NCBI GenBank assembly: GCA_964487045.1
Contig: CAZAOT010000001.1
Span: 215,863-279,862, forward strand
Reading direction: 5' to 3'
From: an uncultured Candidatus Saccharibacteria bacterium
GTDB taxonomy: Bacteria; Patescibacteriota; UBA1384; DTJR01
Length of the DNA stretch: 64,000 bases
Part shown: piece after piece, positions 7,188 through 53,466 of the stretch
Layout of the letters: each line of letters begins with the position of its first letter
How positions within the stretch are numbered: position 1 is the first letter of the stretch
Notes under the pieces: generated by a model
Seen by the model: only the letters and a program-made list of their open reading frames with translations
What the model was told of the DNA's origin: nothing
The model's database searches: none
Program-made: the position numbers and the translations under genes

Positions 7188-7326
7188 TAGCTAAATTTTA
7201 CATCTTTACGCAGGGGTCCGCAACTATTTACATATAAATTGAGAATATTATAATGGCACTTAACCGCAAGGATCAGCGGCATATAAGATTGGTCCAATGT
7301 CTGGCCGCAAGGCCAAAAGCAGGTGA

Positions 7327-8118
7327 ATGATGGAAAAGCTGTTTTACGGTCAGCCGGAGGTGGTTGCTGCAACTAGCCCCGTCGACGTTTTTGAAGTAGG
7401 TAATGGGTGGGGTCTCGCCAGGCAACAGCTGTATAACGACCCTTGTGCATTGGCGGTTGCCAGAGTCGAAAACTGCGCTTTTCTGGTCCGTTTCGAAAAT
7501 GGCCCAGAAATTGACTGGCAGGCAGGAGAGGGCTGGGGATGGTGTTTTCACGACGGCGGCTTCGTGCATACCGATATGCCAGAAGGCGGTAGATATATCT
7601 ACCCGGCCGTCGATCCTCTAGTGTTGTTCGCAGTCAGAGACGGCTGGGACTGGGAACAATTCCAGTATGCTCGCATGCTGCAGATCATCTGCGGCATCAG
7701 CGGTATGTACGAGCATGGGCAGAGCGTGTTCGAAGAACTCTACCCGAAGCTAAAGTTCCGCAAGAGTCTCGGTAACTACCAGGATCTCAGTAACGCGCTG
7801 GTTGCTGCCACTGCAGGACGTATGGCTCATCGGAGGGTCACAGTCCTAGGAGATTTCTGTAAGACGCAGCTCCAATGCGCAGGCAAGGGTGACAAGCGTC
7901 CCCTTGAGGCTCTGGTTACTACCCAGGGGCCAGTCGGTTATGTTGCTAATAGGCTCAAGGATGCCATCTATGCCATGATGGATGTCTGTAACAGCCTTGT
8001 CGGTGATTCAGTGGATCTTCAAGGCAGAAAGCTACTGCCTCGCAGTGAAGAACCGACGAGCGCCCTGGATTTCACGAAAGTCGACGAGGAATTACAGCGT
8101 ACGATCAACCTATTGTAG
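7327..8118 (+). CDS. GC-rich cassette A: hypothetical protein of 263 aa
   Basis: The open frame is visibly GC-rich against the AT-rich flanks. A TATAAT lies upstream and a hairpin (ggttgcc...ggcaacc) downstream at 8138-8160. Confidence 0.5.
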   Translation: MMEKLFYGQPEVVAATSPVDVFEVGNGWGLARQQLYNDPCALAVARVENCAFLVRFENGPEIDWQAGEGWGWCFHDGGFVHTDMPEGGRYIYPAVDPLVLFAVRDGWDWEQFQYARMLQIICGISGMYEHGQSVFEELYPKLKFRKSLGNYQDLSNALVAATAGRMAHRRVTVLGDFCKTQLQCAGKGDKRPLEALVTTQGPVGYVANRLKDAIYAMMDVCNSLVGDSVDLQGRKLLPRSEEPTSALDFTKVDEELQRTINLL

Positions 8119-8172
8119 TTCTGTTTGTAGAGTTGCCCACGGGTTGCCTGATTCTTAGGCAACCCTTCTTCT

Positions 8173-9129
8173 CTATAGCCAAGTAGTGATACGTTTGATC
8201 GCATCAGAGGAACTTTTTATCAAAATCAAATCTTGTTGTTTGCGAAGCCAAGTCAGCTGTCGGCGAGCATAGCCGTGAGTTTTCCATTTAAGCTCCTGAG
8301 CCATTTCTTTGAATTCTTTGGAATTTAAGACTTGAGATTTATGATTTGATTGGAACTTGGAAATTGGAACTTGGAAATTTTGCGTTAAATAATCGCTAAT
8401 TATTCTATATTCGAGACCTAGGGATTCGAGCCACTGGTGTGATACTCCACTGCTGAGCAATCCTACTACTTCCTCTAGCATCCTCTGCTTAGCGAATCGA
8501 ACATCAACTCTCTTATCAATTCTGCTATAAAGTTCTTCTCTGGGTAGGTCGATCGCTAATATTAAGCTTTCAAAATTAGGCTTTTGCTTGGTTGTACTAA
8601 TTCCCTCTTGAGTTTTTTCGATCGCTCGAATCAGCCTGCGAGGGTTTTGTATATCCAATTTTTCTGAATCTATTTTTAATTTTTTTATTAACTTTTGGAG
8701 CTTCTCTAGGGTCATCTTGTTAAGTATGTCTCTAGAATAATGTTGCGAAGCGACTCCTGAGCTCTTAGTTCTTAGTTTTGAGCTATCAGATATGCGAAAT
8801 CCTTCAGCCAGCGCTTTTGCATATAATCCTGTCCCCCCGACTACTATTGGCAATTTGCCGGCGCTAAATATTTCTTCAATTTTTGTTTTAGCTTGTTCTA
8901 GCCAATCAAAAAGTGTGAATTTTTCTTCTGGAATGCAAATATCGATCAGGTGATATTTAACGCCATCATATTCACTAAGGTCCTTGCCAGAACCGATATC
9001 AAGGCCCTTATATACTTGGCGCGAATCAGCTGAAATAATCTCGCCATCAAATTTTTTGGCGAGTTTTACGGCTAAGGATGTTTTGCCTGATCCAGTTGGT
9101 CCTAAAATAAAAACCACTTTTCTTTTCAT
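8173..9129 (-). CDS. miaA: tRNA dimethylallyltransferase
   Basis: MKRKVVFILGPTGSGKTSLAVKLA P-loop. The alternative upstream start at 9165 would leave only 21 bp to the divergent comM. A tandem 15-bp repeat lies in the 3' coding region. Confidence 0.8.
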   Translation of the reverse strand: MKRKVVFILGPTGSGKTSLAVKLAKKFDGEIISADSRQVYKGLDIGSGKDLSEYDGVKYHLIDICIPEEKFTLFDWLEQAKTKIEEIFSAGKLPIVVGGTGLYAKALAEGFRISDSSKLRTKSSGVASQHYSRDILNKMTLEKLQKLIKKLKIDSEKLDIQNPRRLIRAIEKTQEGISTTKQKPNFESLILAIDLPREELYSRIDKRVDVRFAKQRMLEEVVGLLSSGVSHQWLESLGLEYRIISDYLTQNFQVPISKFQSNHKSQVLNSKEFKEMAQELKWKTHGYARRQLTWLRKQQDLILIKSSSDAIKRITTWL

Positions 9130-9186
9130 CTCGAGAAGTTTATCAAAAATATTGTTTTCTATCAACCGGGCGATATAATCAAATCA

Positions 9187-10728
9187 ATGAGCAAGCTCTC
9201 AAAAGTCTATTCAATTTTTACTCATTCACTTGATGCTAATTTGGTTGAGGTTGAAGTTGATGTTGGTGCCGGTATTCCTTCTCTTATAATTGTCGGTCTG
9301 CCCGACAAGTCAGTAGAGGAGGCCAAAGAGCGGGTTAAGTTAGCTATAAGAAATTCAGGATTAGATTTTCCAGATAAAAAAATAATTGTAAATTTAGCTC
9401 CGGCTGACCAGAAAAAGGAAGGACCTCTTTATGACCTGCCAATTGCGATCGGAATTCTAGCTGCCACTGGTATGATTGATGGCGAGAAGTTAAAGAAGAC
9501 AATTTTACTTGGCGAACTTTCTCTCTCTGGTGAAATCAAACCTGTTAGAGCAGTTATCCAAGCGGCAGAACTTGCAAAAAATAAAAATTATAATTTAATA
9601 ATCCCTTCACAAAATTTGATGGAGGCGGGCTTGATCGAAGGGGTCAATGTTTATGCCCCGGAAAATCTGCAAGAACTATTTAAATCCTTAGAAACGAAAA
9701 AGGAAATTTTTTCGAAAACCAAAAAGCCGAAGATTCCATATCTAGACGATTTTGGTGAATATGATTTTTCAAATATAGTTGGGCAGTTTATGGCTAAGCG
9801 TGCATTAGAAATTGCTGCCGCCGGAGCTCATAACATTTTATTTTTCGGCTCTCCCGGCGGCGGAAAAACCTTATTGTCTAAAAGTATCGTTTCGATCCTG
9901 CCGGAGTTGAACGAACAGGAGATGCTGGAAGTTACGAAAATTTATTCGGTTGCTGGGATGCTTTCGAGCGATAAGCCAATTATTAATTGCCGACCATTTT
10001 TATCTCCTCATCACACAACCTCACCGGTCGCGATTATCGGCGGAGGGACCAATCCAAAGCCCGGATCCGTTTCGCTTGCACATAAAGGAGTTCTTTTTCT
10101 TGATGAGTTTCCAGAGTTTCCTCGTTCTGTTCTCGAAGCTCTGCGCCAGCCGCTTGAAGACAGGGTTGTGACGATATCAAGAGCCCAAGGCTCGATCACT
10201 TATCCGGCTGATTTTATGCTCGTTGCCTCCGAGAATCCTTGCCCTTGTGGTTATTATGGTGATCCCAAGCGAGAATGCACTTGCTCGACAACACAGATTA
10301 TTGCCTATCACAAGAAAATTTCTGGTCCGATGCTCGATAGAATTGACCTTCACCTAGAAGTCGAAAAAATTCCGCTTAAAACTATCAAATCAAAATCCAA
10401 AGAAGAGCCTTCGTCGGAGGTTCGCCGGAGGGTCAGCAGTGCCAGAAATATCGCTCTTTCGCGAGCGCAGAAATTACTAAATAAACCCAAATTAAATAGC
10501 GCTCTTAGTCGCCAGGATTTGCTCAAAGTTGCTCCGCTTGATAGTGCTTGTGAAAAATTACTTGAGGACGCATGTGATAAACTAGACCTATCGATGAGGC
10601 AATTTTTGAAACTGCAAAAAATCGCGAGAACAATTGCTGATCTGGAAGGCGCGACCAATATTAGCATTTCACATTTATCGGAAGCCCTTCAATATAGATC
10701 AAAGAAAGGAGAGCGCGGTGGAATTTAA
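9187..10728 (+). CDS. comM: Mg-chelatase-like AAA ATPase, ComM/YifB family
   Basis: N-terminal Lon-like domain, an AAA core (FGSPGGGKT), and a C-terminal ChlI-like domain. Confidence 0.85.
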   Translation: MSKLSKVYSIFTHSLDANLVEVEVDVGAGIPSLIIVGLPDKSVEEAKERVKLAIRNSGLDFPDKKIIVNLAPADQKKEGPLYDLPIAIGILAATGMIDGEKLKKTILLGELSLSGEIKPVRAVIQAAELAKNKNYNLIIPSQNLMEAGLIEGVNVYAPENLQELFKSLETKKEIFSKTKKPKIPYLDDFGEYDFSNIVGQFMAKRALEIAAAGAHNILFFGSPGGGKTLLSKSIVSILPELNEQEMLEVTKIYSVAGMLSSDKPIINCRPFLSPHHTTSPVAIIGGGTNPKPGSVSLAHKGVLFLDEFPEFPRSVLEALRQPLEDRVVTISRAQGSITYPADFMLVASENPCPCGYYGDPKRECTCSTTQIIAYHKKISGPMLDRIDLHLEVEKIPLKTIKSKSKEEPSSEVRRRVSSARNIALSRAQKLLNKPKLNSALSRQDLLKVAPLDSACEKLLEDACDKLDLSMRQFLKLQKIARTIADLEGATNISISHLSEALQYRSKKGERGGI

Positions 10729-13577: not shown

Positions 13578-13646
13578 CTCGATCTATAAATATTCTCTCA
13601 TTTGCGGCTGGTTCATTTTGCTTTTATCTTCTGATAAAATGAGGTT

Positions 13647-15125: not shown

Positions 15126-15497
15126 ATGTCAAACAAAGATCAAAACTCAAAATCCAAGAAATACGGATTAGGCGAAAGGTGTTCAAAATTTGGGGAAGAA
15201 ATTATTTTATTTTGTAAGACAATTAAAGAATCTAACATCAATAAAAGCATTATTAATCAATTAATAAGATCCGGAACCTCAATTGGTGCAAATTATATGG
15301 AAGCTGATTGTGCCGAAAGTAAGAAGGACTTTTATCACAAGATAGGTATTTGTAAAAAAGAGTCAAAAGAATCTACGCATTGGCTCAGGATGCTAGCAAC
15401 TTCGGAACAGCATTTAAAAGCTAATTGCAGGAGACTATGGCAAGAAGCTCATGAATTAACATTAATCTTCTCAACAATTATTAAAAATAGAACTTAG
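15126..15497 (+). CDS. four-helix-bundle protein (the family also called 23S rRNA intervening-sequence protein)
   Basis: Characteristic of the family: ...IRSGTSIGANYMEADCAESKKDFYHKIGICKKESKESTHWLRM... Confidence 0.65.
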   Translation: MSNKDQNSKSKKYGLGERCSKFGEEIILFCKTIKESNINKSIINQLIRSGTSIGANYMEADCAESKKDFYHKIGICKKESKESTHWLRMLATSEQHLKANCRRLWQEAHELTLIFSTIIKNRT

Positions 15498-16072: not shown

Positions 16073-16306
16073 ATGTCAAACTTCAAGCCTACTTAGTCAC
16101 CCTTGTCCTTCCGTAGGTCGCACTGCTCATAGAGGATATAATCCCTTGATCAGTAAGACCGAAGGAGGAAGACCTAATTTACAGGGTTAATATTATCAGC
16201 TTTTTATTAAATATAAAGAGTTTACGAAAGAAAACAGCCCCGGACGCGTCATCCTGGTAGAACCAGTCTGACGGCCGGGGCCGTTGGTGGCTAGTTGCCT
16301 AGCCAA

Positions 16307-16732
16307 CTACTCCCAGGAGAGCCAGGGGGCGGCAGAGGTGTCGGCAACCTTCATCAGGATTGCCAACGCGGTAGATGCGACGGGCCCCGGGAAGGCAACC
16401 GTTCCGCCTTCCTTGCGAATACCGACCTTGAGGCCAACAGCCTCAGCGGCGGCGCAGATGAAGCCGTGGCCGCGCGAGAAGATGTTGGCGGCGCCATCGA
16501 GCGCCAGTTCATGGCCATGGATGAGCACGTTGTCGCCATCCTGAAACATGTACACGAAGGTCGCGTTGGACTTGTCCTTGGCGACCTCCATCACGAACAT
16601 CTCGGCCTCGATCTCTCGGCTCTCCTCGTCAACTTCGCCTTGCTCATTCAGCGATACGACAGTCAGAGGCAGTGACCTTCTCATCTGAAACTCCAACCGC
16701 TTTAGGGGCGCGGCAACCCCATGGCTTGTCAA
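16307..16732 (-). CDS. GC-rich island B, gene 2: hypothetical protein of 125-141 aa
   Basis: GC-rich ORF. An internal Met at 16684 has the better SD (GGAG). Upstream at about 16800-16830 is a TTGACT-17-TATAGT promoter. Downstream (minus strand) is the gccccgg/ccggggc hairpin followed by a T-run. Confidence 0.5.
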   Translation of the reverse strand: MTSHGVAAPLKRLEFQMRRSLPLTVVSLNEQGEVDEESREIEAEMFVMEVAKDKSNATFVYMFQDGDNVLIHGHELALDGAANIFSRGHGFICAAAEAVGLKVGIRKEGGTVAFPGPVASTALAILMKVADTSAAPWLSWE

Positions 16733-16985
16733 ACTTCATGCAAGGGAGTACTAAGCTTCCTCCTCAAGCAAACATAAGACTATACCACAAAACAGCCTAA
16801 AAGTCAAGCCAAGTGAGTATTCTCACCTGGGTAACCCCTCACTCTAGACACGAAGTGAACGTGAACGAATTGTTCGAGTGAACTTTCGAGTTAGAGGGAG
16901 TGGTCAAGATTAGGGCTGTTTATAAAGAGGAAGGCCCCCTGTCGAATGACGGGGGGCCTGGTGGTTGCGAACAGAATCAGCGGGG

Positions 16986-17777
16986 CTATACCTTGGGAAA
17001 GATGGAGGCGCAGTCGCGCCCGGTGAACATGTTTTCGGGCGTGATCTGGACAGAGCGCCCGATGGCGTCGAGGTTGGGAGAGCATGCCAGAAGAACTTCG
17101 CGTAGATTCCACATGTTCATCCAGATATCCTTGAGCGCCTCAATGGCGCCGTCGGTTCCCTTCAGGAATAGTCCGTTCGGTGGGCCCTTGATGGGCCATT
17201 CCTTCAAGTGCTCCGATCCGGTCAGCCAACGCTCAAGCGCCAGAACCTCCTGAGGGAAGACGACTTTTTGCCCGGTGTTGTTCTGGCACTGGAGCCTGAC
17301 CTCATCAATGATGCTAGGGTCACTGGCCGAGGCCCGACCCTTGAAAGTAACGCGCACATTCTTGGCGGTGGTGTCGCGGACTCGTTGCCACTCGCAGTAC
17401 CAGTCGGCGAAGTCTTCCTTGATTGAGAGCTTGCAGACATAGGCTGATTGGAGCGTACTCCTTCGATCTCGGGAGTGATTGGACATGATCGGGTCGGGTG
17501 TGTGCTCGATGGACAAGCGTGGACCGAAGAGATGGCATCTCGTCAGGCCTCTGGCGAGGTTGACACAACGAGTGTTGCCAATGTAGTGAAGGAACCTAGT
17601 TCCTTGAGCTTCCGGACTCTGTAGTCGGATATCCATCTCGTCGCCGGAGGCGTTGGCCTGAATGTAGGCTGCGGCGCCTCCCTTGAAGCCTGGCACGATC
17701 TCGATGTCTCCTTGTAACGGTTTGAGCGCTTCGATGTCCGGAAGGCTGAACAGCTCGGGGGTCGGCGGCTGCACCAT
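16986..17777 (-). CDS. GC-rich island B, gene 1: hypothetical protein of 263 aa
   Basis: GC-rich ORF. AAGGAG lies 5 nt upstream of the ATG. No family was recognised. Confidence 0.5.
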   Translation of the reverse strand: MVQPPTPELFSLPDIEALKPLQGDIEIVPGFKGGAAAYIQANASGDEMDIRLQSPEAQGTRFLHYIGNTRCVNLARGLTRCHLFGPRLSIEHTPDPIMSNHSRDRRSTLQSAYVCKLSIKEDFADWYCEWQRVRDTTAKNVRVTFKGRASASDPSIIDEVRLQCQNNTGQKVVFPQEVLALERWLTGSEHLKEWPIKGPPNGLFLKGTDGAIEALKDIWMNMWNLREVLLACSPNLDAIGRSVQITPENMFTGRDCASIFPKV

Positions 17778-17880
17778 CTTGACTCCTTCTTGGCGGCTTA
17801 CCAGTAGGCCATGCCCGAACGGGTTGGGGAAGCGTCAACTATTGGTCCTGAGAAAACGGACATATGTTTATTCGCTGATC

Positions 17881-18034: not shown

Positions 18035-18109
18035 GCGGGTGTAGTTCAGCGGTAGAACGCTTCCTTGCCAAGGAAGAGGCCGTGGGTTCAAGTCCCATCA
18101 CCCGCTCCA
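18035..18109 (+). tRNA. tRNA-Gly (GCC)
   Basis: Acceptor GCGGGTG/CACCCGC, anticodon loop TTGCCAA, T-loop TTCAAGT, encoded CCA. A terminator hairpin (aaccgcc-acca-ggcggt + T-run) follows. Confidence 0.9.
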
Positions 18110-18231
18110 AACAAAATAACCGCCACCAGGCGGTAATTTTGTTTGAAAAATGGCTGTGGGACTTGAAGGCCGGAGGTGCGACGGCACCGAGGCCCGCCCT
18201 GAAGAAATTTCAGCAGAAATTTACTGAAGGG

Positions 18232-20219: not shown

Positions 20220-20319
20220 TTATATCAAAAATAAATACTACTCAATTTTATTAAACCTGTAAAGAAAAGGGGCCGCGGTCGATGAAAATCGCGGCCCCTA
20301 GGCACAGGCTGGACTGAGA

Positions 20320-20610
20320 TCATCCGCCTTGCATCTTTGCGAATGCCCCGCGGATAAGTGTTTCCAGATGAGTGTAGTAACCGTAGCCTCTCGTGTCGAG
20401 TGGCTGGCCGTCCAGGTACTGTGCACGCGAGGGCGAACCCTCGCATACTGTCTTGCCATCAATGACAACTGGCAGCAGATGTCGGTGGTCGTCGTCATGA
20501 CCACCCCAGTTCAGGATGCCTTCGCTCAATGACCCGGTGATCTTTTCGAGCTTGGCGACGTCGTTGTCGGGAGGTACGTCTAGTCCACACTTATCGCATT
20601 TTGCAGACAT
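20320..20610 (-). CDS. GC-rich cassette C: 96-aa hypothetical protein with an N-terminal CxxC
   Basis: TTGACT-17-TATAAA promoter and AAGGAG SD upstream. A strong terminator lies downstream (ggggccgcg...cgcggcccc + T-run, 20255-20298). Confidence 0.5.
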   Translation of the reverse strand: MSAKCDKCGLDVPPDNDVAKLEKITGSLSEGILNWGGHDDDHRHLLPVVIDGKTVCEGSPSRAQYLDGQPLDTRGYGYYTHLETLIRGAFAKMQGG

Positions 20611-20731
20611 AAATGCATCTCCTTATTCTTAGAAGCAAGACTTTTATACTTCTAGATTTGCTTAAAGTCAAGATTATCCCTTGATATTTATCAATTTTCT
20701 GACTAGGATTAATTACACTAATTTATAAAAA

Positions 20732-22780: not shown

Positions 22781-22858
22781 ATGCAAGAAGGGTTCAACCC
22801 TTTCAACCTAGACGGCTCGATCAACTACGATCACCCGCATTTTCCATCACACTGGTAA
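22781..22858 (+). CDS. GC-rich cassette D, small ORF 1 (25 aa, MQEGFNPFNLDGSINYDHPHFPSHW)
   Basis: AGGAGG lies 7 nt upstream. It is immediately followed by small ORF 2. Both are short, so coding status is uncertain. Confidence 0.3.
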   Translation: MQEGFNPFNLDGSINYDHPHFPSHW

Positions 22859-22872
22859 GGAGAGCTACTGAC

Positions 22873-22986
22873 ATGAGCAAGCCGATCAACCACTGCACTG
22901 GTCATATCGTCCGTCCGAACGGCACTGTCACTCGTCCCACCCCACCTCCGCCCGCTTCCGCCAAGAAGCACATCGCTGTCATCTAG
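22873..22986 (+). CDS. GC-rich cassette D, small ORF 2 (37 aa, Pro-rich, MSKPINHCTGHIVRPNGTVTRPTPPPPASAKKHIAVI)
   Basis: AAGGAGAG SD. A strong terminator follows (ggcgaccgc...gcggtcgcc + TTTTT, 23015-23048). Confidence 0.35.
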   Translation: MSKPINHCTGHIVRPNGTVTRPTPPPPASAKKHIAVI

Positions 22987-23205
22987 GCAGCCACGCCCTA
23001 ACCGGGTTCTCAGGCGACCGCGCTACGCGCTGCGGTCGCCTTTTTCTATATGTAATATAAATGACCCACTCACCGAAATCTTACTGCAAAACAGACTACG
23101 TCCTGTTATTGCAGTGCGGTTGGTGAGGGGTCTGCGGCTAGAGTACTAGCCTTGACTTTTATGATGATGTATGATAACATCATAGATCGTAAATTAAGAA
23201 AGCTT

Positions 23206-25802: not shown

Positions 25803-26070
25803 AAAATTAAATATCCCGAAAGGGTTATTTTTTTTAACCCACTTGACCCCATACCAGATAATATTATTGTTAAGGATTATTTGGCGGTTCCGCCCCGCCA
25901 AAGCCTTTCTGCAAAACGAAATTCTTTCGGTTACCTGCCTGCCGGCAGGCAGGTTGCAGAAGCGTCGGCTACGGGGTCTGCGAGCTGATTACAGCTCTTG
26001 ACAACAATATGATGATGTATGATAACATCATATTACATCACGAGCATTTCTTGACAGGAGGGTCGCAATC

Positions 26071-26286
26071 ATGACTGGTGGTACCGTTTCTCTCGATCTG
26101 GAAAATGTTCACGAAGGTGTCCGTCTCTGCAAGAGCGGATGCAACGTGAATGTCTTCGGGGCTAACGGAGTCTTACTCCAAATCCTCGAAGGCACCGACA
26201 TCGCTGAATGTGTGGAGCGCCTTCAGAAAGAGGGTGTTCCGCACACCATCTGCACCCCTGACCTGGTCATTCAAATCACCCGCTAG
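26071..26286 (+). CDS. GC-rich cassette E: 71-aa hypothetical protein
   Basis: A TTGACA promoter overlaps the 24-bp motif atgatgatgtatgataacatcata, which also occurs at the native SIS gene promoter. A terminator hairpin agggcccc...ggggccct follows. Confidence 0.45.
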   Translation: MTGGTVSLDLENVHEGVRLCKSGCNVNVFGANGVLLQILEGTDIAECVERLQKEGVPHTICTPDLVIQITR

Positions 26287-26450
26287 TGTCGTCTGCTAGC
26301 CAGCTATCTCGTGACATCAGGGCCCCCGTCAATCGACAGGGGCCCTACGACTAATTTGACAACTTGGTTTAATATGGTGTTATTATGGCAATATGTATTG
26401 AAAATTAATTCGTTTAAAATTTAATTTTTAAAATAAGAATTGAGGTAGAT

Positions 26451-28299: not shown

Positions 28300-28632
28300 T
28301 GCGAGCAGTAGCTCGCGCTTATGTGAAAACCGGGGGGACACTCTTGATTGTGAAACATCCACTTTTTGAGTACCACCTCAAAAAGCCCTAGGTTTTCAAC
28401 GCTTTCCTCACCCTCGCAATGCCCTTGGTGAAGCTATCTTTGTTGAAACTTCCGGAATTTATTCAGTTTACGTTCAGACTTACGTCTTCATATTCAACTG
28501 ATATGCAGTTCCAACTTTCAACTTCAGAGAGCATCTATTAATTCATAGGCTCGAAGCTCGCTTTTTCGCCTATGAATTGGAGGGATTTATTAATGCCACA
28601 GAATTGACAAAACAGCACTTTTGTGCTATATT
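28300..28632 (+). repeat. copy 1 of the recurrent structured element, with a TTGACA-17-TATATT promoter at its 3' end
   Basis: Shares conserved blocks with the copies at 52555, 37131(-), 42381(-) and 22335(-). It carries two expanded hairpin inserts. Confidence 0.7.
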
Positions 28633-28736
28633 GTCAGGTTCGTAAATTGAAATTTACTTAGAGGTAGGTTCCTGGAGCTTTATCCAGAAATCCTGCTTCT
28701 AAGCAGGTATTCTCCAGCCGCTTAGTCGGCTGGGAG

Positions 28737-29261
28737 GTGATTGATTTGTCGAAGCAAGAACGGACAACCGGACTCGTTGTTGTAGCAGCGGTCGTAGGGA
28801 TCTGGATCCTTAGCCGCATCGTCGGCGATGGCTTCGGCGAGACGTTCTGCGAGATCTTGGCCGTGAGCGCCGGCGCCCTGGTCTGTACCATACTGGCATC
28901 TGCGCTGCTGACGAAGCCGGATGGGAAGATGCCGGAGGAGAGTGCTATCATCGGGCTCTTCATGATCTTCTTTGTCCTGCTGGCTATCCCGCACTTCAGT
29001 GTCTCGGCCAAGCTTGCGTCGAGCAAGTGGCAGATGAAGATCGCGGTGGCCCACGACTATGACAAAGCAGGGATCAAAGAGGCGCTCACCCAGCGTGACG
29101 AGACGCTCCGGCGCTCGAGTGCTTACATGATCGGTGACGGCTGGAAGTATGACCGTCACACCCACTACTTCAACCGGGGCTGGAACCTGTATCTCTGGGT
29201 TCCGTTCTCCGGATACCGGCGCAAGCCGGTCACGACCAACGGCCTGGGGACTAGTCCCTAG
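28737..29261 (+). CDS. GC-rich cassette F: hypothetical integral membrane protein (3-4 TM)
   Basis: GC-rich ORF with a structured ~100-nt leader and a GGGAGG SD. The start could be the GTG at 28737 or the TTG at 28746. Confidence 0.5.
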   Translation: MIDLSKQERTTGLVVVAAVVGIWILSRIVGDGFGETFCEILAVSAGALVCTILASALLTKPDGKMPEESAIIGLFMIFFVLLAIPHFSVSAKLASSKWQMKIAVAHDYDKAGIKEALTQRDETLRRSSAYMIGDGWKYDRHTHYFNRGWNLYLWVPFSGYRRKPVTTNGLGTSP

Positions 29262-29317
29262 GCCGTTTTTGATTGAAAAAAATCAAATTATAAGGTATAA
29301 TTTCGATGTTTGATGAT

Positions 29318-31908: not shown

Positions 31909-31937
31909 TTGACAAAACGGCTTAGATAAGCTATAAT
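31909..31937 (+). promoter_or_regulatory. consensus sigma70 promoter (TTGACA-17-TATAAT) for cassette G, followed by a 15-bp perfect leader hairpin (31950-31987)
   Basis: Read directly from the sequence. Confidence 0.6.
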
Positions 31938-32034
31938 CTAGTATTTCATAAACGCACGGCTCTGGAGTAATTCAGAGCCGTGCGTTTATAAGAAACCACC
32001 TGCTCTTTGAGAGTTAGGTTAAGGAGGAACGGCC

Positions 32035-33717
32035 GTGGGCAAGCTGTGGCTGGCTCTTGTATTGCTTGTTGTTGTCTCGATGTCGTTTGCTGCTCAAGAC
32101 TTCGCAGTCGAGTGGCATGTCCACTCGAGCACCTTCTCGGACGGTACTCGCACCCCGCTACAACTCGTGCTCGATTCGCTTTGCCAAGTGGTGGTCTTCT
32201 CAGATCACCTCGACGGCATAGCAGCAAAGGGGGCGAAGCTCTACCTCGACACCATCAGAAGGTTGTCGGGTACAGCTGGGACGCTGGCTATTCCTGCGGT
32301 CGAAGTGACTTGTGGTAAACTTGAGAGCTCATATGATGTGATTGCTCTTGGCCTGAACGAAGAATCGCTTGACGAGCTGATTTCGCTTTATCAGAGAGGG
32401 GCTTTCAACTACTCCGAGCAAGGGCTACCTGCCCTTAAGGCGGTTGCAAACCGCTACAACTTGATCCTCATCGCTGCCCATCCGGACAGTAAGGACACCC
32501 TGCTTGGCAAGGGCATCCCTTTCCATCTCAACGAGAACGCCAAGTATGTCGACGGGTTTGAGATGTTCGATTCGAACCACATCGGTTTTGACGCGGACAA
32601 ATTTCCCGAAAACTGCCTGCCGTTCTACAGGCACTTTGACCGGCTAACGCTCACAGCTGGCAGCGACTTTCATTTCCTGATTCACGGCTCATTGCCAACC
32701 GAGTCTTGGCGTGAAGCGCCAATGACCCGGGTCATCCTCGACGACGACGCCTCGCTCACCGAAGAGTCGATCACTGACTCAATCCGGCGTGGCCGAACTT
32801 ACGTCTCGAGTCTGCGCAGCGCTCGGCTAGTCGAAGCGAGTGCGATGCCCGGCGGAGTGTGGAAGCTCGCCGAGCCGCTCTATATGGCTTGCCGAGGAGT
32901 AGAGGAAGGCGATTTTCTCTACGACAAGGTCAATGTGATTGCGGTCACCGGGAAGACGTGGCACAAGCGGAGCTTTCAACCTCGCTTTGATGGTGACAAG
33001 TTGGTGCTGAAGATCTCGGCTGATCAGTTTCCCCCTGGCATCAAGAGTCTGAACGTAGACTTCTGCGGGCGGATCCTCACCTCGACGATTCTCACCGCGC
33101 CGGCGCCAACTGCTCCGGTGCAGTCATCGCCTGTCGCTTCCGCACCCTCGCCGGTCCAGCCGACCCCTCAACCCGCACCTCAGCCTGCCGCCACATCCTC
33201 ACCAAACGCTAATGTCGATCCGAAGTACGGCATCAATCTTGCGGCGTATAAGTACCGCTTCCGCGGTACACAGGGGAATGTCTTTGGCAACACGAACGAG
33301 TATCTGGTCGTCTTTAATGACGACCTCAAGGGTAAAGTCTGGCATCAATTCGTGGCAGAATTTCCGCCGATTGTTCTCGACGTACAGCTCGAGATGAAAA
33401 GCGACGGCCACGCCCAATGTGTAGAGCTGTTCGACTTTGAACAGACCGCGAACGCCTGGCTTCCCAACCGTGCCCGGGATCCTCGCAAGACCGACCCATA
33501 CCTTGATGAACTGAGGTGTTGGAGTGAAGGTGACTGGGATCTGATCCCCAAAGGGAAGGCGCGTTTGAGAGTCAGCATTGATCCCAAGAGCCTCATGGCG
33601 TCGCACTGCGACACGTCGGGGCTTGCCTATACGATCAAGTCGATCCCTGCCTGGGCCTACGCGTTCAATCGGGGGTTTAACTACTACTATGACCAGGTTT
33701 TCCTAAAGCGTTTCTAG
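32035..33717 (+). CDS. GC-rich cassette G: secreted PHP-domain phosphoesterase with a Pro/Ala-rich linker and a C-terminal domain
   Basis: GTG start with AAGGAGG 7 nt upstream, then a signal peptide. PHP motifs HVHSSTFSDG, AAHP and SDFH are present. A strong terminator lies at 33745-33781. Confidence 0.6.
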   Translation: MGKLWLALVLLVVVSMSFAAQDFAVEWHVHSSTFSDGTRTPLQLVLDSLCQVVVFSDHLDGIAAKGAKLYLDTIRRLSGTAGTLAIPAVEVTCGKLESSYDVIALGLNEESLDELISLYQRGAFNYSEQGLPALKAVANRYNLILIAAHPDSKDTLLGKGIPFHLNENAKYVDGFEMFDSNHIGFDADKFPENCLPFYRHFDRLTLTAGSDFHFLIHGSLPTESWREAPMTRVILDDDASLTEESITDSIRRGRTYVSSLRSARLVEASAMPGGVWKLAEPLYMACRGVEEGDFLYDKVNVIAVTGKTWHKRSFQPRFDGDKLVLKISADQFPPGIKSLNVDFCGRILTSTILTAPAPTAPVQSSPVASAPSPVQPTPQPAPQPAATSSPNANVDPKYGINLAAYKYRFRGTQGNVFGNTNEYLVVFNDDLKGKVWHQFVAEFPPIVLDVQLEMKSDGHAQCVELFDFEQTANAWLPNRARDPRKTDPYLDELRCWSEGDWDLIPKGKARLRVSIDPKSLMASHCDTSGLAYTIKSIPAWAYAFNRGFNYYYDQVFLKRF

Positions 33718-33744
33718 CGCGTAGGGAGATCGAGGTTTGTTTTC

Positions 33745-33781
33745 ACGCCCAGCCGGGTTGTTTCCTGGCTGGGCGTTTTTC
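33745..33781 (+). terminator. intrinsic terminator (acgcccagccgg...ctggctgggcgt + TTTTT)
   Basis: Read directly from the sequence. Confidence 0.7.
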
Positions 33782-36175: not shown

Positions 36176-36277
36176 TACTTTTCTTACTCCCTTGATCAAT
36201 TTTTATAAAAATGTTATAATTTCTCTCTGTTGGCGCAAATGAAATTGGCCATTTTGTGGTCAGCTAAATCTGCGACA

Positions 36278-36508
36278 ATGGAGGGTGTTTCTGTGGAACA
36301 GGACATCGTATTCGTGTTCGAGGATAAGAAGTACAAGGTCAGCCATGATGCTTACATCCTGGGTCTGGCCATCAGGCTTCCGGATGGTCGCATGATCCGC
36401 CCGAACTACTGGGAAACAGGTGATCCCCCTGTTCCCAAAGGACTGGCGGTTTGTGGGATAGACGAGCATGTTCTTGCTGAGCTCGTCGAAGACGGGAGCC
36501 AGTCATAG
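36278..36508 (+). CDS. GC-rich cassette H: ~76-aa hypothetical protein
   Basis: TTGATC-17-TATAAT promoter at 36191-36219. The start is ambiguous (ATG at 36278 or the GTG 15 nt later after GGAGGG). A terminator follows (ggccgga...tccggcc + T-run). Confidence 0.45.
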   Translation: MEGVSVEQDIVFVFEDKKYKVSHDAYILGLAIRLPDGRMIRPNYWETGDPPVPKGLAVCGIDEHVLAELVEDGSQS

Positions 36509-36578
36509 ATCGCATCTGCAGCATTGTCTCCTGGCCGGACCCAAGCATCACGCTTGGCTCCGGCCTCTTCTTTTTTAG

Positions 36579-37130: not shown

Positions 37131-37400
37131 CAATTTTATTTATAAAAGTCAAAGATATTATATTCAAATAGTCGAAGAAGCGAGCTTGGAAGCGATAATA
37201 AATAAATGCTCTCCGAAGTTGAAAGCTGGAACTGATTATCTTGGCAAACTTGTCCAAGAATGAATTCCAGAAGGTTCAACAAGGAGAGCTTCATCAAGGG
37301 CGTTGCGAGGGTCAGGAATTCGTTAAAAACCTAGGGAACACACCGAAAGTGTGCCCTGGGTTGTTAACATTAACTGCGAGCCGAAGGCTCGCAAAGTAAT
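37131..37400 (-). repeat. copy 3 of the recurrent structured element, upstream of the native trmH-like gene
   Basis: Its reverse complement is about 85% identical to copy 2 (52555-52770) and shows compensatory stem changes. Confidence 0.7.
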
Positions 37401-39894: not shown

Positions 39895-39926
39895 AAAAGA
39901 TACTGCCCGCCGATAGGCGGGCAGGG

Positions 39927-40544
39927 TCAATAGAGCAAAGTACTCGTACTGGTACGAAAACCAATACTCCACTCAAGGTCGGAATAGATCTTTGCTTCGA
40001 TTGAGCCGAAGCGCTGACATATACCAACCTGGAAGTCAAAGTCGTCTAGGTTCGAAACGTCCAGGAAGCCCCGAGCGATAAAGTCGGTGCTTGATGTGAG
40101 TTTGGCGATGCGCCATTTCGGCAGAGAAAGGAAACCGGTCGGGTGCGAGTTGGGTAGCGCGATCGGATAGAGGAGCCGCAAATCGATATTTCTATCGAGG
40201 TACTGCAGCCCTGCGTAGAACTCCTCTTTCTGGATTGGGTCGTATCCCATTTCCTTGTCTCGATCGGATTCCCAGATTCCCGGTACGATATCGAGCATAA
40301 AGCGGTACGACGAGCGCCAGTCTTTAGGGATTGGCCAGGAAAACCTGACGTTCTTGGTCAGTGAGGTTGACGATTCGTAGTCGATTTCGAAGAGGAATAT
40401 CTGATCGTAGAAGTATCCTTTGACCAGACCGTCGCTCCACTCGGCCCCGACTTCGAAGGGTCGGTTGTCAATATCCTGCGCCCAAAGCGGCGTCAGGCAG
40501 AGCACGGCTACCGCAAGAGCGGCTAAACGTGTCACGCATGACAC
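39927..40544 (-). CDS. GC-rich cassette I: secreted hypothetical protein with a signal peptide and a C-terminal aromatic residue
   Basis: AAGGAGG SD. A terminator ctgcccgcc-gata-ggcgggcag + T-run lies on the minus strand. Confidence 0.5.
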   Translation of the reverse strand: MSCVTRLAALAVAVLCLTPLWAQDIDNRPFEVGAEWSDGLVKGYFYDQIFLFEIDYESSTSLTKNVRFSWPIPKDWRSSYRFMLDIVPGIWESDRDKEMGYDPIQKEEFYAGLQYLDRNIDLRLLYPIALPNSHPTGFLSLPKWRIAKLTSSTDFIARGFLDVSNLDDFDFQVGICQRFGSIEAKIYSDLEWSIGFRTSTSTLLY

Positions 40545-40655
40545 CTCCTTAGGTTGGCTTACTAGCTACACTATAGCACTATTTAGCCCGTTAGAAATTG
40601 CCGACGCCTTGTATGCGCCGATATTGTGTATTTATATCTTAGTCGGCATCGATTT

Positions 40656-41483
40656 CTAACGGGCCGAGAAATATGTCTCTACAAACTTTTTTGCCGCTTT
40701 GAGATTTTTTATCACCGCTTCTTCGGTGATATTTCCCTTCTTATCAGCATACTGTTCGCACCAAAGTTCGATTGAAATTGGACCGAAATATTTATCGGCC
40801 CTTAATTGACGCAAAAATTTTTTAAGTGGTAATTTGCCCTTGCCGGGAAGGAGATGGCAGTCTTCAATATTACCCGGCTTTTTCGGACTTGGTCTCATAT
40901 CAGAGTCAGAAAAATGAACATGGCCGACTTTTTCTTTAATTTTTTCATAATACTGCATAATATCCATTTCGGCAGTTGCGATGTGGGATGTATCTAAATT
41001 TATAGACTCAAAAGCCTGCATCACGTCGAAGTGATAGCTCGGATTGAGAGTATTGCCAGAGGTGAAATCATCGCGTTTGGTCGCATTTTCAATCACCACT
41101 TTAACTGGTTTGGCAAGCTTGAAGACACTCTTTTGATTTTCAATCAACCAAGTGACGTATTGCGGATCAGAGTAATCCCAAGAATGCAAAATTAAATATT
41201 TTGCCTTCAGCTCCTTGGCGAGTTTAATCGATTTCTCGAGTCTATTTTTCCAGTCGCCCCAAGAATAAACAAATTCCATCGCTGAGTGAATTGATGTGAC
41301 CTTGAGGGAAAATTTTCGCTCTAAGCGTTTAATGTATTTGGAGTCTTGAGAGTCGAGTCGGTCATCGATAATTAATTCGATATTCTTAAATCCAGCTTTT
41401 TTCGCAACCTCAAAGAACCGGTATAGCCCATATCGGTGACAAGATCCGGTCGATAAAGTCAATTGATTTTTAAGTGTAGCCAT
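40656..41483 (-). CDS. sugar phosphate isomerase/epimerase (xylose-isomerase-like TIM barrel)
   Basis: AP-endonuclease-2/XylA-like TIM-barrel pattern in backbone composition. Confidence 0.6.
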   Translation of the reverse strand: MATLKNQLTLSTGSCHRYGLYRFFEVAKKAGFKNIELIIDDRLDSQDSKYIKRLERKFSLKVTSIHSAMEFVYSWGDWKNRLEKSIKLAKELKAKYLILHSWDYSDPQYVTWLIENQKSVFKLAKPVKVVIENATKRDDFTSGNTLNPSYHFDVMQAFESINLDTSHIATAEMDIMQYYEKIKEKVGHVHFSDSDMRPSPKKPGNIEDCHLLPGKGKLPLKKFLRQLRADKYFGPISIELWCEQYADKKGNITEEAVIKNLKAAKKFVETYFSAR

Positions 41484-41583
41484 TTGAGCAAAATATTACT
41501 AAAAATAAGGTTCAATGTAAACAAAACGGGCCACCCAAGCTATGCAAGGGTGGCCCGTAGAGGGTCCTGGTAGGTGGCTCTAC

Positions 41584-42246
41584 CTAGACCGGGTTGCCAT
41601 TGGCGTCAGCACCGGCGCCATCTGTGTTGACCGAGTAGTCGTTCTTCGTCTCGGTCGTGGTCGTGCGGGTGCCGGCGTTCGAGGCGTTGTCGGCCACGTT
41701 GGCCGTGCCACCCATGCTGCCTTCGGCGGCGGACGAGGTGGTGCCTCCCTCGGCCGAAACCGTCGGGGAAGCAGTGGCGCTCACGCCACTCACGAGCGGC
41801 CCGCTCCACAGCCCATTGGGCAGGGAGAGGGTCAGGTTGATCGTGGGCACAGTCGGCGGCTGACTGCGGAGAGCGTTCAGCTCTCGCCGCATCAGCACCA
41901 GCGCGATCAGGCCCGCGATAAGGCCAAGGGCCAGTCCGATGAGGACTGCCATGACCCAGGAGTTGTCCCGCCAAATCTGCTCCGCCGCCGCGACGGCCAT
42001 CGCCCAAGCCTCCGCGCGAGTCGCGTTGGCGTTGGGGCGGAGCGTACCGTCGGGGTACCCGTTCAGGTTCCCCTGACCGGTGCCCTTGTTCCATGTGGGC
42101 TGGGCCCAGGCGGGCGCGGTCTCACCGGTGTTGAGGTTCGTGAAGTTGATCGGTCCAGAGGAAGGGATCCACGGCCGATCAGTCTGAGCGAACGCGACGG
42201 ACGACAGGAGAACGACAGTGATCACGGCAATGATGGTGCGGGACAT
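41584..42246 (-). CDS. GC-rich cassette J: secreted protein with an S-layer-homology (SLH) domain, then a TM helix and a Ser/Thr/Gly-rich tail
   Basis: SLH signature GYPDGTLRPNANATRAE. The promoter TTGACA-17-TATACT (42381-42409, minus strand) is near-identical to the cassette F promoter. Terminator gggccaccc...gggtggccc at 41529-41557. Confidence 0.55.
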   Translation of the reverse strand: MSRTIIAVITVVLLSSVAFAQTDRPWIPSSGPINFTNLNTGETAPAWAQPTWNKGTGQGNLNGYPDGTLRPNANATRAEAWAMAVAAAEQIWRDNSWVMAVLIGLALGLIAGLIALVLMRRELNALRSQPPTVPTINLTLSLPNGLWSGPLVSGVSATASPTVSAEGGTTSSAAEGSMGGTANVADNASNAGTRTTTTETKNDYSVNTDGAGADANGNPV

Positions 42247-42380
42247 GAGTTGCCTCCCGGCAAGTGTAGTTGCCGCCTCTATACCGAGGTCGGCGTGTAT
42301 CTTTACCCCAGAGCCACCTGGGGATTAAGAACTAATTGTCAAATGCCACATTGATGAGCTTCTCACCAACGTAACGAAGC

Positions 42381-42650
42381 AGTATAGCACAAAATAGCTG
42401 TTTTGTCAATCCTGGAGCTAATTAATCGCCGAAGGCACCGCTTCCAAAAGATGATTTTTCGCTTCTTGCGCGAGTAGTGCCGCAAATCTGTCGGCTCGAG
42501 TGCTCCCGGGAAAGAAAAATCATACTTTTGAGCGTGTTGCGCTTTTTGAGTGGAGCAAAAAGCTAATCCATCAAACCTAGGAACTTGCCCGCAACAAGTT
42601 CTTGGGGTTTCGACATTAACTGCGAGCTTTTAGCTCGCAAAATTTCTTTC
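42381..42650 (-). repeat. copy 4 (partial) of the recurrent structured element, carrying the cassette J promoter
   Basis: Shares the terminal hairpins tgcgagc-N5-gctcgca and aaacctagg..cccgcaa..ccttggggttt, plus the promoter block. Confidence 0.55.
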
Positions 42651-52488: not shown

Positions 52489-52554
52489 TTTAGATTAAAA
52501 AGATTCTAAGAAAAAAGACCCGCGAGGGTCTTTTTTCGTTTTGGGAGCTAAAGA

Positions 52555-52819
52555 TCGTATGTAATGTTAACAACCCAGGGGACACTTTCGGTGCGTCCCC
52601 TAGGTTTTTAACGATTTCCTCACCCTCCTAACGCCCTTTGTGTAGCTCTTTTTGTTGAACCTTCTGGAATTCATCCTCGAACAAGTTTGTCGAGGTAATC
52701 AGTTCCAGCTTTCAACATCAAAGAGCATCTATTTTTTAAAGTCTCGAAGCCCGCTTCTTCGACTATAAATCGACTTTTGATACGGGAGTATTGACATTTA
52801 CCGGGGAATGTGGTAATAT
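52555..52819 (+). repeat. copy 2 of the recurrent structured element, with a TTGACA-17-TAATAT promoter at its 3' end
   Basis: About 85% identical to the reverse complement of 37131-37400. It sits directly upstream of cassette K. Confidence 0.7.
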
Positions 52820-52829
52820 ACGCAAGCTC

Positions 52830-53210
52830 ATGTATTTGAGCACATCCGACGTATACGGAGGCAAGCCCATGGGATGGGAACACGGAACGTTCGGTCGTGG
52901 GGCGTACGACGCGTTTCTCGCTGACTTGAGAAACGATAAGTACAACGACTTCACCATCGTGAAGCTCGACAATCCCAACCAGCCTGAGTACAAGCGACTC
53001 TGCCGCGGACGCGACCTCGACTGCAAGAGGTCTCTCCCGCTGCGCATGGCTCGCTTCAATTACGCAGGCCGCCGCGACAACTGGTACGTCGTGGAGGAAG
53101 TTCTCGCGGTTGATGACAGGGATTGCGATGGCGCGTCCATCGTATCTCTGATTGTCTACCCCGAAGGCTGCCGCCCTGCAGTCAGCCCACCACTGATGCT
53201 GGAGGCCTGA
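52830..53210 (+). CDS. GC-rich cassette K: ~126-aa hypothetical protein, probably translated from a near-leaderless mRNA
   Basis: The ATG lies about 10 nt after the -10 box. A terminator (ggacc...ggtcc + TTTTT) lies at about 53365-53400. Confidence 0.45.
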   Translation: MYLSTSDVYGGKPMGWEHGTFGRGAYDAFLADLRNDKYNDFTIVKLDNPNQPEYKRLCRGRDLDCKRSLPLRMARFNYAGRRDNWYVVEEVLAVDDRDCDGASIVSLIVYPEGCRPAVSPPLMLEA

Positions 53211-53466
53211 CCACACGAGTCCTGAGCGGACTGTAAAATGCTCCGTCTCCGGCAGACGTTAAATGCTGGACTTCCCCGGAAACGGGGGTTCTAGGCATGG
53301 CTTGCCATGTCTACCACACCTGATCGTTTTGCTGTTTATTTGGGCGGCTAGTTCCGTCCACTATATGCGGGACCTGCGGCGATATTGCTGACGGGTCCTT
53401 TTTGTTATTACTTGATTGTAAAATACCCATTTTGAGATATAATCAAACCAGTAAAAAAGGAATTTT

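Follow-up and report, generated by a model that had tools for sequence, protein, structure and literature searches.

Recurrent intergenic slots with GC-rich, apparently exchangeable genes in a Berkelbacteria-like chromosome

Introduction

Why should a series of GC-rich genes lie scattered among the housekeeping genes of an AT-rich chromosome, and how do they keep a composition so unlike that of their neighbours? This question is raised by a 64,000-nt stretch of DNA (contig CAZAOT010000001.1, positions 215,863-279,862; assembly GCA_964487045.1), referred to below as the window, in which eleven GC-rich loci (cassettes A to K) are spread over positions 7188-53420. A sequence-only reading of this DNA had taken them for small islets acquired recently and independently from foreign, possibly diderm donors. 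The analysis reported here points elsewhere: on balance, the eleven loci are probably accessory transcription units (single-gene, except for the two-gene units B and D) that occupy fixed intergenic slots and whose gene bodies have been replaced. Members of the Candidate Phyla Radiation (CPR, or Patescibacteria) are abundant and mostly uncultured episymbionts, and the way in which they recognize and exploit their hosts is largely obscure.

Results

The cassettes form a compositionally discrete class of genes

With a GC content of 42.4% for the whole window, all eleven loci stand out at 0.49-0.63 GC when islands are called in 100-nt windows (the general profile was drawn in 300-nt windows). The twelve to thirteen cassette open reading frames (ORFs) have a GC content at third codon positions (GC3) of 0.58-0.83, with z = 5.5-12 above the 38 backbone genes of the window used as a reference (mean 0.374, sd 0.038, range 0.30-0.464), and the two sets do not overlap. 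First and second codon positions (GC1 and GC2) are raised as well, by 12 and 7 points, respectively. Codon choice is inverted relative to the backbone (ATC 0.75 versus 0.29, AAG 0.80 versus 0.36, CTG 0.34 versus 0.08), and the encoded proteins are depleted in Lys and Ile and enriched in Ala, Gly, Arg, Pro, Trp and Cys. Since the non-coding portions of the units (leaders, spacers and 3' ends) also reach 0.54 GC, versus 0.33 for backbone intergenic DNA, the entire transcription unit is shifted and not its codons alone. The shift amounts to ~30 GC3 points and has sharp edges of ~50 bp. A contrast that had first been perceived by eye is borne out by windowed GC, GC3 and codon usage, and the computation did not return a uniform composition.

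Selection on codon usage could produce such a bias if the cassettes were very highly expressed native genes for which G- or C-ending codons are optimal. Their strong predicted promoters, Shine-Dalgarno (SD) sequences and terminators agree with this view, as does a preference for C-ending codons in two-fold pyrimidine boxes. However, native genes that are presumably highly expressed have an ordinary GC3 (S1 0.36, MreB 0.35, FtsA 0.41, SecA 0.36), the amino-acid composition and the untranslated regions of the cassettes are shifted too, and a preference for G-ending codons (AAG, CAG, CTG, CCG) is not expected from translational selection in an AT-rich genome on general grounds. We regard this explanation as very unlikely. 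The same range of GC3 (0.31-0.43) is found for the fast-evolving genes p612, p135 and p158, for two LAGLIDADG endonucleases and for native ORFs without a Pfam match, and rapid evolution, ORFan status, selfish mobility and high expression were all rejected as sources of the GC-richness on that account. As these native controls rule out the simple causes, a GC-rich reservoir or a local GC-favouring process is left.

Cassettes and backbone belong to one chromosome

The backbone encodes FtsH, UvrD, a KsgA-like protein, MiaA, a ComM-like protein, sortase, GlmS, S1, DHH, SpoU and SLT proteins, followed in our inventory by AlaRS, FtsA, RuvX, YceG, MreB/C, PBP2, SerRS and SecA. Its AlaRS is at most 64% identical to the species representatives labelled Candidatus Berkelbacteria and its gene order is syntenic with Berkelbacteria metagenome-assembled genomes; judged from these comparisons, it is the backbone of a Berkelbacteria-like CPR genome. 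The initial statement that the GC-rich genes fill gaps between the housekeeping genes of a CPR backbone holds, and distant Berkelbacteria have that backbone without the cassettes.

A trivial origin, suspected at the outset, would be a chimeric assembly or a contaminated bin, for which the compositional contrast itself is the one argument. Exact-protein look-ups retrieved the junctions SLT-AlaRS-I-AP endonuclease-J (apurinic/apyrimidinic endonuclease), S1-G, SecG-B2-B1, p522-C-SBP5...B2 and K-SerRS from separate per-run assemblies. In total, junctions of B, C, G, I, J and K recur in per-run assemblies of two projects (SRR11845623-6, SRR11845635 and SRR29243437/40), with I and its neighbours found in six runs, and the same architecture is present in at least ten independent, unrelated metagenome contigs. 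Since the junctions recur in independent assemblies, they are not chimeras, and an artefact of this kind is exceedingly improbable. Similar look-ups with MiaA and GlmS returned no record, probably because of different start-codon calls.

The slots are conserved but their contents are not

The distant relatives used for comparison (L005, L006, L008, L011 and L012; Berkelbacteria with ~60% AlaRS identity) keep the gene order of the backbone, with S1 abutting p158 and AlaRS abutting the FtsA-like gene, and no homolog of any cassette was found in these five. Because the flanks are adjacent there, the units are insertions relative to these genomes. AlaRS and the FtsA-like gene are also adjacent in L090 and L091, where the I slot is absent.

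GC-rich slot genes were encountered in closer relatives (L075, L077 and L086-L095), and a metagenome scan with S1 yielded ten relatives with an S1 identity of 80-88%. The S1|p158 slot, which holds G in the window, contains a gene of 500-630 aa in 10/10 closer relatives, with a GC3 of 0.57-0.75 between flanks at 0.32-0.46. Same-slot homologs of G are 22-46% identical to it; in L090 and L091 the place is taken by a secreted, C39-like peptidase that is not homologous to G. A signal peptide is common to all G-slot proteins; their domains are PHP-like or C39-like, and their C-termini are swapped. An I-like GC-rich gene follows AlaRS in L086, L088 and L089 (34-36% identity), and H has a positional ortholog at 5975-6175 of L075 (65% identity, GC3 0.75). 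The F slot is filled by unrelated GC-rich genes (e.g., L095 7907-8959, GC3 0.89), and so are other slots of the relatives, whose occupants include an ankyrin protein, a cupin and many ORFans. A high GC content marks the slot genes of every lineage, with a GC3 of 0.57-0.89 across relatives. A search for the cassettes in sister genomes, as had been suggested, finds GC-rich genes in the same slots, but these genes are strongly divergent or non-homologous. Only 31% of 32 GC-rich ORFs have a homolog in another relative (mean identity 36%) versus 84% of 88 AT-type ORFs (identity 68%; Fisher p = 8e-8).

The frame around the variable gene is better preserved. In the G slot, the promoter and the 5' stem-loop are kept in all relatives, including L090 and L091, with compensatory changes at 4/9 stem pairs, and the downstream T-run and the p158 promoter are likewise conserved.

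These data bear directly on the view that the cassettes are recent, independent islets from GC-rich, possibly diderm donors, with a composition that would be unameliorated donor GC. The ratios between codon positions (dGC1/dGC3 = 0.38, dGC2/dGC3 = 0.24) are those expected at equilibrium of a genome with 55-65% GC, the distant relatives are devoid of cassette genes, relatives carry GC-rich genes of outside families (archaeal-type S-adenosylmethionine (SAM) synthetase, PyrF, cupin, ankyrin), and horizontal gene transfer (HGT) and genomic islands are documented generally, and as common, in Patescibacteria (PMC12455944). Yet synonymous sites between genomes of the clade are saturated, and GC-rich same-slot homologs of G, H and I are found across them. 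A gene acquired once by an ancestor should relax to the host GC3 of ~0.4. The GC excess persists past saturation of synonymous divergence (dS). Moreover, the regulatory frames of at least some slots are native, and a search of 5.8 billion proteins gave only two homologs for G, both in the S1|p158 slot of CPR genomes and GC-rich versus their own flanks, and for I a single, same-slot CPR homolog with 54% identity. In that set B2 is a strict ORFan, as is A among 1.84 billion cluster representatives. No foreign or diderm donor, as initially proposed, could be identified in these searches, and recent acquisition of this type appears unlikely. On sequence comparison, the slots seem to be long-lived, neither fresh islets from diderm donors nor artefacts.

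Two GC-rich blocks of metabolic genes with recognizable identity were noticed in more distant relatives. One, in L009 (3289-5946), encodes an orotidine monophosphate decarboxylase (PyrF) and a phosphoribosyltransferase right after AlaRS; the other, in L090 (153-3246), encodes an archaeal-type SAM synthetase and an S51 peptidase. Unlike the ORFan cassettes, these metabolic blocks look like ordinary HGT from GC-richer donors.

Gene bodies appear to be replaced in blocks

The history of the slot genes does not follow that of their neighbours. Paired identities of S1 and the G-slot protein with those of the window are 95% and 43% in L075, 83% and 45% in L089, 57% and 36% in L077, and 87% and 24% in L086, which carries a different allelic class. 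The non-synonymous divergence (dN) of G amounts to 0.56 in the comparison with L075 as well as in that with L089, between which the dN of the flanks doubles. Over the first 435 aa, the G-slot proteins of L086 and L087 are 92% identical; beyond this point their C-termini are unrelated. In close genome pairs, by contrast, slot dS equals flank dS and slot dN/dS is 0.11-0.32, which indicates real genes under purifying selection that are apparently not hypermutating. From these comparisons, slot-gene types appear decoupled from the backbone tree.

Replacement at finer scale is visible against the near-identical strain L081. No difference separates the two in AlaRS and I, while the 5' 270 bp of J contain 133 differences, with indels between the alleles and a 12-codon change in length. 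Between I and J, ~40 substitutions are clustered in a 200-bp patch (41090-41300) of an otherwise identical AP-endonuclease gene; this patch has the appearance of a clean recombination import in a backbone gene located between two cassettes. dS is also mosaic among neighbouring genes. Incongruence, strain-specific patches and normal short-term dS together form the signature of block replacement, which would proceed by homologous recombination via conserved flanks between old, divergent allele classes.

Two other readings were rejected. Hypermutation or a diversity-generating retroelement target is at odds with the equality of slot and flank dS, with the indels between J alleles, and with the absence of a reverse transcriptase or a template/variable repeat pair from the window. 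Structured RNAs are equally discarded, as long ORFs are kept in all relatives with a dN/dS of 0.1-0.3.

If recombination is concentrated at the slots, the genes could also be old residents that gained GC in place through GC-biased gene conversion or a local repair bias. Persistence of GC3 at saturated dS fits this view; untranslated regions, GC1 and GC2 are raised too, which excludes codon selection; recombination patches lie at or next to cassettes in a neighbourhood of mosaic dS; and GC-biased gene conversion is known in bacteria, in most of which recombining genes are GC-richer (PMC4450053). Against it stand the size of the shift and the abruptness of its edges, as effects on recombinant genes in bacteria generally reach only a few points, and the recombined AP-endonuclease gene between I and J is itself not GC-rich (GC3 0.42). 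To our knowledge, bacterial GC-biased gene conversion is known only with much smaller effects, and we hold such an in-place gain for doubtful.

Predicted anatomy of the units

All regulatory signals given here are predicted from sequence. Promoter-like sites were scored out of 12, and the consensus scan for promoters and terminators covered 40 kb of the window. The units are arranged as follows.

Cassette A, 7227..8165, plus strand: promoter TTTACA-16-TATAAT at 7227-7254, 72-nt leader, ORF 7327-8118 (263 aa), terminator 8141-8165; GC3 0.58
Cassette B1, 16236..16807, minus strand: promoter TTGACT-17-TATAGT at 16807-16779, ORF 16307-16684 (125 aa), terminator ~16282-16236; GC3 0.77
Cassette B2, 16932..17860, minus strand: ORF 16986-17777 (263 aa), SD GAAGGAG, terminator hairpin 16959-16932; GC3 0.72
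Cassette C, 20269..20671, minus strand: promoter TTGACT-17-TATAAA, SD TAAGGAG, ORF 20320-20610 (96 aa), terminator 20298-20269; GC3 0.60
Cassette D, 22781..23041, plus strand: putative micro-ORFs 22781-22858 (25 aa) and 22873-22986 (37 aa), both SD-preceded, terminator 23012-23041
Cassette E, 26008..26346, plus strand: promoter overlapping a 25-bp operator-like motif at 26008-26032, ORF 26071-26286 (71 aa), hairpin 26319-26346 with weak T-run; GC3 0.60
Cassette F, 28604..29267, plus strand: promoter TTGACA-17-TATATT at 28604-28632, structured 104-nt leader, ORF 28737-29261 (174 aa), terminator 29238-29267; GC3 0.78
Cassette G, 31909..33776, plus strand: 12/12 promoter at 31909-31937, conserved 5' stem-loop 31941-31996, ORF 32035-33717 (560 aa), terminator 33745-33776
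Cassette H, 36192..36565, plus strand: promoter TTGATC-17-TATAAT at 36192-36220, ORF 36278-36508 (76 aa), terminator 36533-36565; GC3 0.61
Cassette I, 39903..40664, minus strand: ORF 39927-40535 (202 aa), SD TAAGGAGG, terminator 39924-39903, upstream inverted repeat 40586-40664; GC3 0.64
Cassette J, 41528..42409, minus strand: promoter TTGACA-17-TATACT at 42409-42381, structured 134-nt leader, ORF 41584-42246 (220 aa), terminator 41556-41528; GC3 0.83
Cassette K, 52793..53330, plus strand: promoter TTGACA-17-TAATAT at 52793-52821, ORF most likely 52869-53210 (113 aa), 3' hairpins; GC3 0.72

Boundaries first proposed for B1, I and K were revised to those listed, and the description of D as two small ORFs was retained. 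The start chosen for K follows the 113-aa gene called in an independent assembly (L100). Likewise, the 125-aa gene of B1 is also called in L101 and L103, the B2 junction is reproduced in L101-L104, and C is reproduced in L102. A 270-aa ORF runs antisense to J on the plus strand (41542-42354), and comparably long antisense ORFs span B1 and K. Stop codons are scarce in GC-rich DNA, which most likely explains these antisense frames, and the annotated strand is preferred for J, B1 and K because the codon-position GC pattern favours it.

In the 40 kb scanned, the top-ranked promoter-like and terminator-like matches fall mostly at cassettes or tRNA genes. Sites scoring at least 10/12 precede A, B1, C, E, F, G (12/12), H, J and K, and a clear SD is found for A, B2, C, both D ORFs, E, F, G, I and J. 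Every unit ends in a GC-rich 3' hairpin, followed by a T-run except in E and K; that of D is the strongest terminator match of the scanned region. The leaders of F, G and J fold more stably than shuffled controls (z = -5.2, -6.2 and -4.0, respectively).

Several modules are shared between units. The near-identity reported for the F and J promoters is confirmed (27/30 bases in common), and this module was seen in this strain only. The terminator hairpins of B2 and E are nearly identical in sequence. Upstream of E and of the SIS gene lies the same partly palindromic 25-mer (24 bp as first described), TATGATGATGTATGATAACATCATA, at 26008-26032 and 23160-23184, in both cases overlapping the -10 region. 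It is also kept in L095 (4073-4097, before SIS) and in L086 (667-691, before a 71-aa ORF and GlmS). Given this conservation in relatives, the motif is a native operator and not the sign of a common vehicle, for which it had been taken; it is probably bound by a regulator of amino-sugar genes, of which it is a candidate operator.

Neighbouring genes and a repeated element

Proximity to tRNA genes stands for B, C, E and F of the five cassettes for which it was claimed; H is ~800 bp away, with a LAGLIDADG gene in between. C adjoins tRNA-Leu(cag) at 20133-20219. Near B, the last 21 nt of tRNA-Gly (18090-18110) are repeated exactly at 18232-18252, and the 19-mer GGGACTTGAAGGCCGGAGG recurs at the same 142-bp spacing (~18158 and ~18300). 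The repeats of this region (18090-18373), downstream of the tRNA, have the look of an att-like remnant or of a tandem duplication that has degenerated, and they do not bracket cassette B.

Both LAGLIDADG genes are free-standing and AT-rich. The first (25101-25730), by E, extends into the start of tRNA-Leu(gag) (25716-25802), and the second (35483-36175), by H, starts 12 nt past tRNA-Leu(taa) at 35383-35470; in L075 the position of the latter is taken by a GC-rich 190-aa ORF. Among other neighbours, a ComM-like ATPase of the Mg-chelatase family is encoded at 9187-10728, near A; in other bacteria, the ComM family is linked with the integration of DNA taken up by transformation. A four-helix protein of the 23S_rRNA_IVP family (15126-15497) belongs to the backbone near B. 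Directly after the FtsA-like gene, a 612-aa protein (43944-45782) keeps its position across the clade at 24-49% identity. Its Baseplate_J-like match is weak (E = 1.1e-5) and unusual for a neighbour of a cell-division gene.

A repeat of ~210 nt accompanies four of the cassettes, as initially reported (D, F, J and K). Its copies are listed below.

Full copy, 37168..37379, minus strand: in the SpoU-SLT gap, with no cassette here; a GC-rich ankyrin gene occupies this place in L088
Full copy, 28386-28577, plus strand: upstream of F
Full copy, 52555-52766, plus strand: upstream of K
Partial copies, 22612-22682 (beside D) and 42580-42641 (beside J)
Copy in a relative, L089 20298-20382: in the J slot

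The copies are 73-86% identical, with conserved sequence blocks, and all are located in variable slots; the three full ones immediately precede F, K and the SpoU-like gene and are oriented alike relative to them. A central hairpin shows compensatory stem changes between copies (CTTGG/CCAAG, CTCGA/TCGAG, CCGT/ACGG). A small-peptide gene was rejected, since this hairpin is conserved and the reading frame is not. An Rfam scan of the window returned tRNAs only, with nothing credible for the repeat. The element may act as a recombination anchor or as a regulatory leader, or else encode a small RNA.

Predicted products of the cassettes

The 560-aa product of G combines a signal peptide, a PHP-like hydrolase domain, a beta-sandwich, a P/Q-rich linker and a variable, swappable C-terminal domain. 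Residues of the HxH/H/E/H/DxH metal-ligand set are invariant in 7/7 divergent G-slot proteins. Of these seven, four match NF038032 (CehA/McbA; best E = 1.9e-11 and 44 bits, below the 80-bit cutoff) and one matches Pfam PHP (E = 0.067). The top two Foldseek hits are PHP domains of RNase AM (E ~1e-3), weak matches obtained with a model of pLDDT 47, and a sequence profile search gave no PDB match. Together, these observations agree with the earlier assignment of G to the PHP proteins, as a predicted divergent PHP-type metallohydrolase.

Three other products are predicted to be secreted or membrane-bound. I is a secreted-type protein with a signal peptide, whose structure model (pLDDT 30) is unusable, and F is a predicted membrane protein of 174 aa. 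In J, a signal peptide is combined with a partial SLH motif, a transmembrane helix and a low-complexity tail. Its designation as an SLH-domain protein stands only in part: the profile match is single and partial (positions 24-43 of 44, E = 1.1e-5), and the full domain of ~44 residues, usually present in triplicate, was not found in this match. Furthermore, SLH domains are common in monoderm bacteria, so that their presence in a monoderm cell, which had been read as a mark of foreign and diderm origin, is no sound basis for this conclusion.

All cassette proteins were compared with Pfam, PHROG, NCBIfam and PADLOC, and these scans gave only the partial SLH match of J and the sub-cutoff CehA/McbA match of G, with no defence-system or phage family (PADLOC, PHROG) for any of them and nothing at all for A. 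Though both are 263 aa long, A and B2 show no similarity to each other and were rejected as duplicates.

Could a GC-rich virus or mobile element of this CPR clade, as yet unsampled, continually re-supply the cassettes in the manner of phage morons? A moron-like anatomy, the non-homologous GC-rich genes found in the same slot of different relatives and the common modules (F/J promoters, B2/E terminators and the repeat by four cassettes) would agree with such a reservoir. However, scans of viral contigs with A, B2 and G singly and with alignments of the G and I families found no relatives, the large protein searches with A, B2, G and I gave no hint of a reservoir either, and no PHROG matches were obtained. 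No integrase, transposase or reverse transcriptase is present among all window ORFs scanned, homology across slots was not detected, and the F/J promoter is restricted to one strain. A reservoir of this kind is, in our opinion, rather unlikely, and the common vehicle suggested by the sequence-only reading is not supported by these results.

Discussion

On the reading that we favour, i.e., replaceable accessory units in fixed slots, each slot would be an insulated expression site between housekeeping operons, made of a sigma-70-type promoter, an SD, one gene (two in B and D) and an intrinsic terminator, often together with a structured leader. The regulatory frame may be chromosomal in at least some slots, as suggested by the promoter, stem-loop and downstream junction of G and by the operator of E, and the gene body would be the variable part. 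In the short term, this body would be inherited vertically under purifying selection; in the longer term, it would be swapped, whole or by domain, for a very divergent allele or an unrelated gene. We infer that the conserved flanks allow these swaps by homologous recombination, which would probably follow the uptake of DNA. The contents appear lineage-restricted, and those that are secreted or membrane-bound (G, I, J and F) could plausibly act in host contact or phage evasion, with a selection that may be diversifying or frequency-dependent. As a whole, the occupants would form a compositionally discrete GC-rich gene pool.

Several observations weigh against this interpretation. The comparison with relatives is restricted to the D-J part of the window. 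Slot genes keep their high GC3 despite saturated dS, and a closed pool among AT-rich genomes should drift to AT. No near-identical cassette was found across slots or genomes, and no donor allele nearly identical to any replaced segment. Most cassette proteins are without assigned function. Finally, direct reading revealed no convincing -35/-10 pair for B2, D and I and no SD before the ORF of H; together with the T-runs lacking in E and K, these gaps restrict to most cassettes the claim that each has its own promoter, SD and terminator.

The slots share properties with several known systems. Phage morons, a concept of Hendrix and Juhala, are extra genes between genes that are adjacent in relatives, with their own promoter and/or terminator, a deviant GC content and hot-spot positions at which genomes carry different morons (PMC2920897). 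Similarly, the cassettes are inserted between genes adjacent in relatives (S1-p158, AlaRS-FtsA-like), mostly have their own predicted promoter and terminator, deviate in GC3 (0.58-0.83 versus 0.37 ± 0.04) and occupy hot-spot positions. They differ in that they reside in a cellular housekeeping chromosome and match no PHROG, whereas morons are found in phages or prophages; they are GC-richer than their surroundings, while morons are usually AT-richer or simply deviant; and they have positional homologs clade-wide, with a promoter and leader that are kept, in the G slot, independently of the gene.

A second parallel is offered by the minimal mobile elements of Neisseria, reportedly described by Saunders and Snyder in 2002 and by Snyder et al. 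in 2007. Such an element is a region of variable content that lies between conserved genes and is exchanged by homologous recombination in these flanks (PMC3787668). The cassette slots likewise vary in content between conserved flanks and have no dedicated mobility genes; slot incongruence and the J/AP-endonuclease patches fit recombination through the flanks, though no donor-recipient pair was found. The differences lie in a CPR host with putative competence, in a far higher density (~11 slots in 46 kb), in a GC shift that is uniform and in one direction, and in contents that are mostly ORFans. The slots also resemble miniature versions of replacement flexible genomic islands, in which strains carry, at one locus, different or unrelated versions of exposed structures that are swapped by homologous recombination, with recombination tracts enriched in the neighbouring core genes (PMC4898812). 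Those islands, however, are multi-gene clusters for glycosylation or polysaccharides, while the cassettes are single genes of 0.2-1.9 kb and only G, I, J and F are predicted to be secreted or in the membrane.

Two further systems were rejected. The cassettes are small, modular, single-gene accessory units like those of integrons, but here there is no integrase among all ORFs scanned, no attI, attC or common 3' repeat, and the units have their own promoters and are scattered rather than arrayed. A tRNA-targeted integrative island is discarded for want of an integrase and because the one duplication of a tRNA end (18090-18110 = 18232-18252) encloses 121 bp and not B. In the literature, we found no description of a dense, clade-conserved, uniformly GC-rich architecture of single-gene slots. 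The slots are moron-like and similar to minimal mobile elements, and the persistence of their GC-richness is the puzzling property.

It is possible, although we propose this tentatively, that the clade keeps a gene-scale GC dimorphism by an active process, with occupants 15-25 GC points (~30 GC3 points) above the genome over divergence times that saturate synonymous sites many times; on this view, recent HGT followed by amelioration could not produce the pattern. Candidates for such a process are unusually strong GC-biased gene conversion confined to recombination-hot-spot genes and an unseen GC-rich element that shuttles genes. If true, a bacterium would show an isochore-like pattern resolved to single genes.

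To conclude, these slots offer a clean natural test of the amelioration model: contrary to what is usual, the accessory genes exceed the core in GC, and they keep this excess across saturated divergence. The cause of local GC content (mutation, selection, biased conversion or reservoir) would be testable with population metagenomics of one clade. Besides, calls of recent HGT based on composition would be systematically misdated in such genomes. For the biology of these bacteria, the slot genes may provide a shortlist of host-interaction or phage-evasion factors, as well as ready strain markers.

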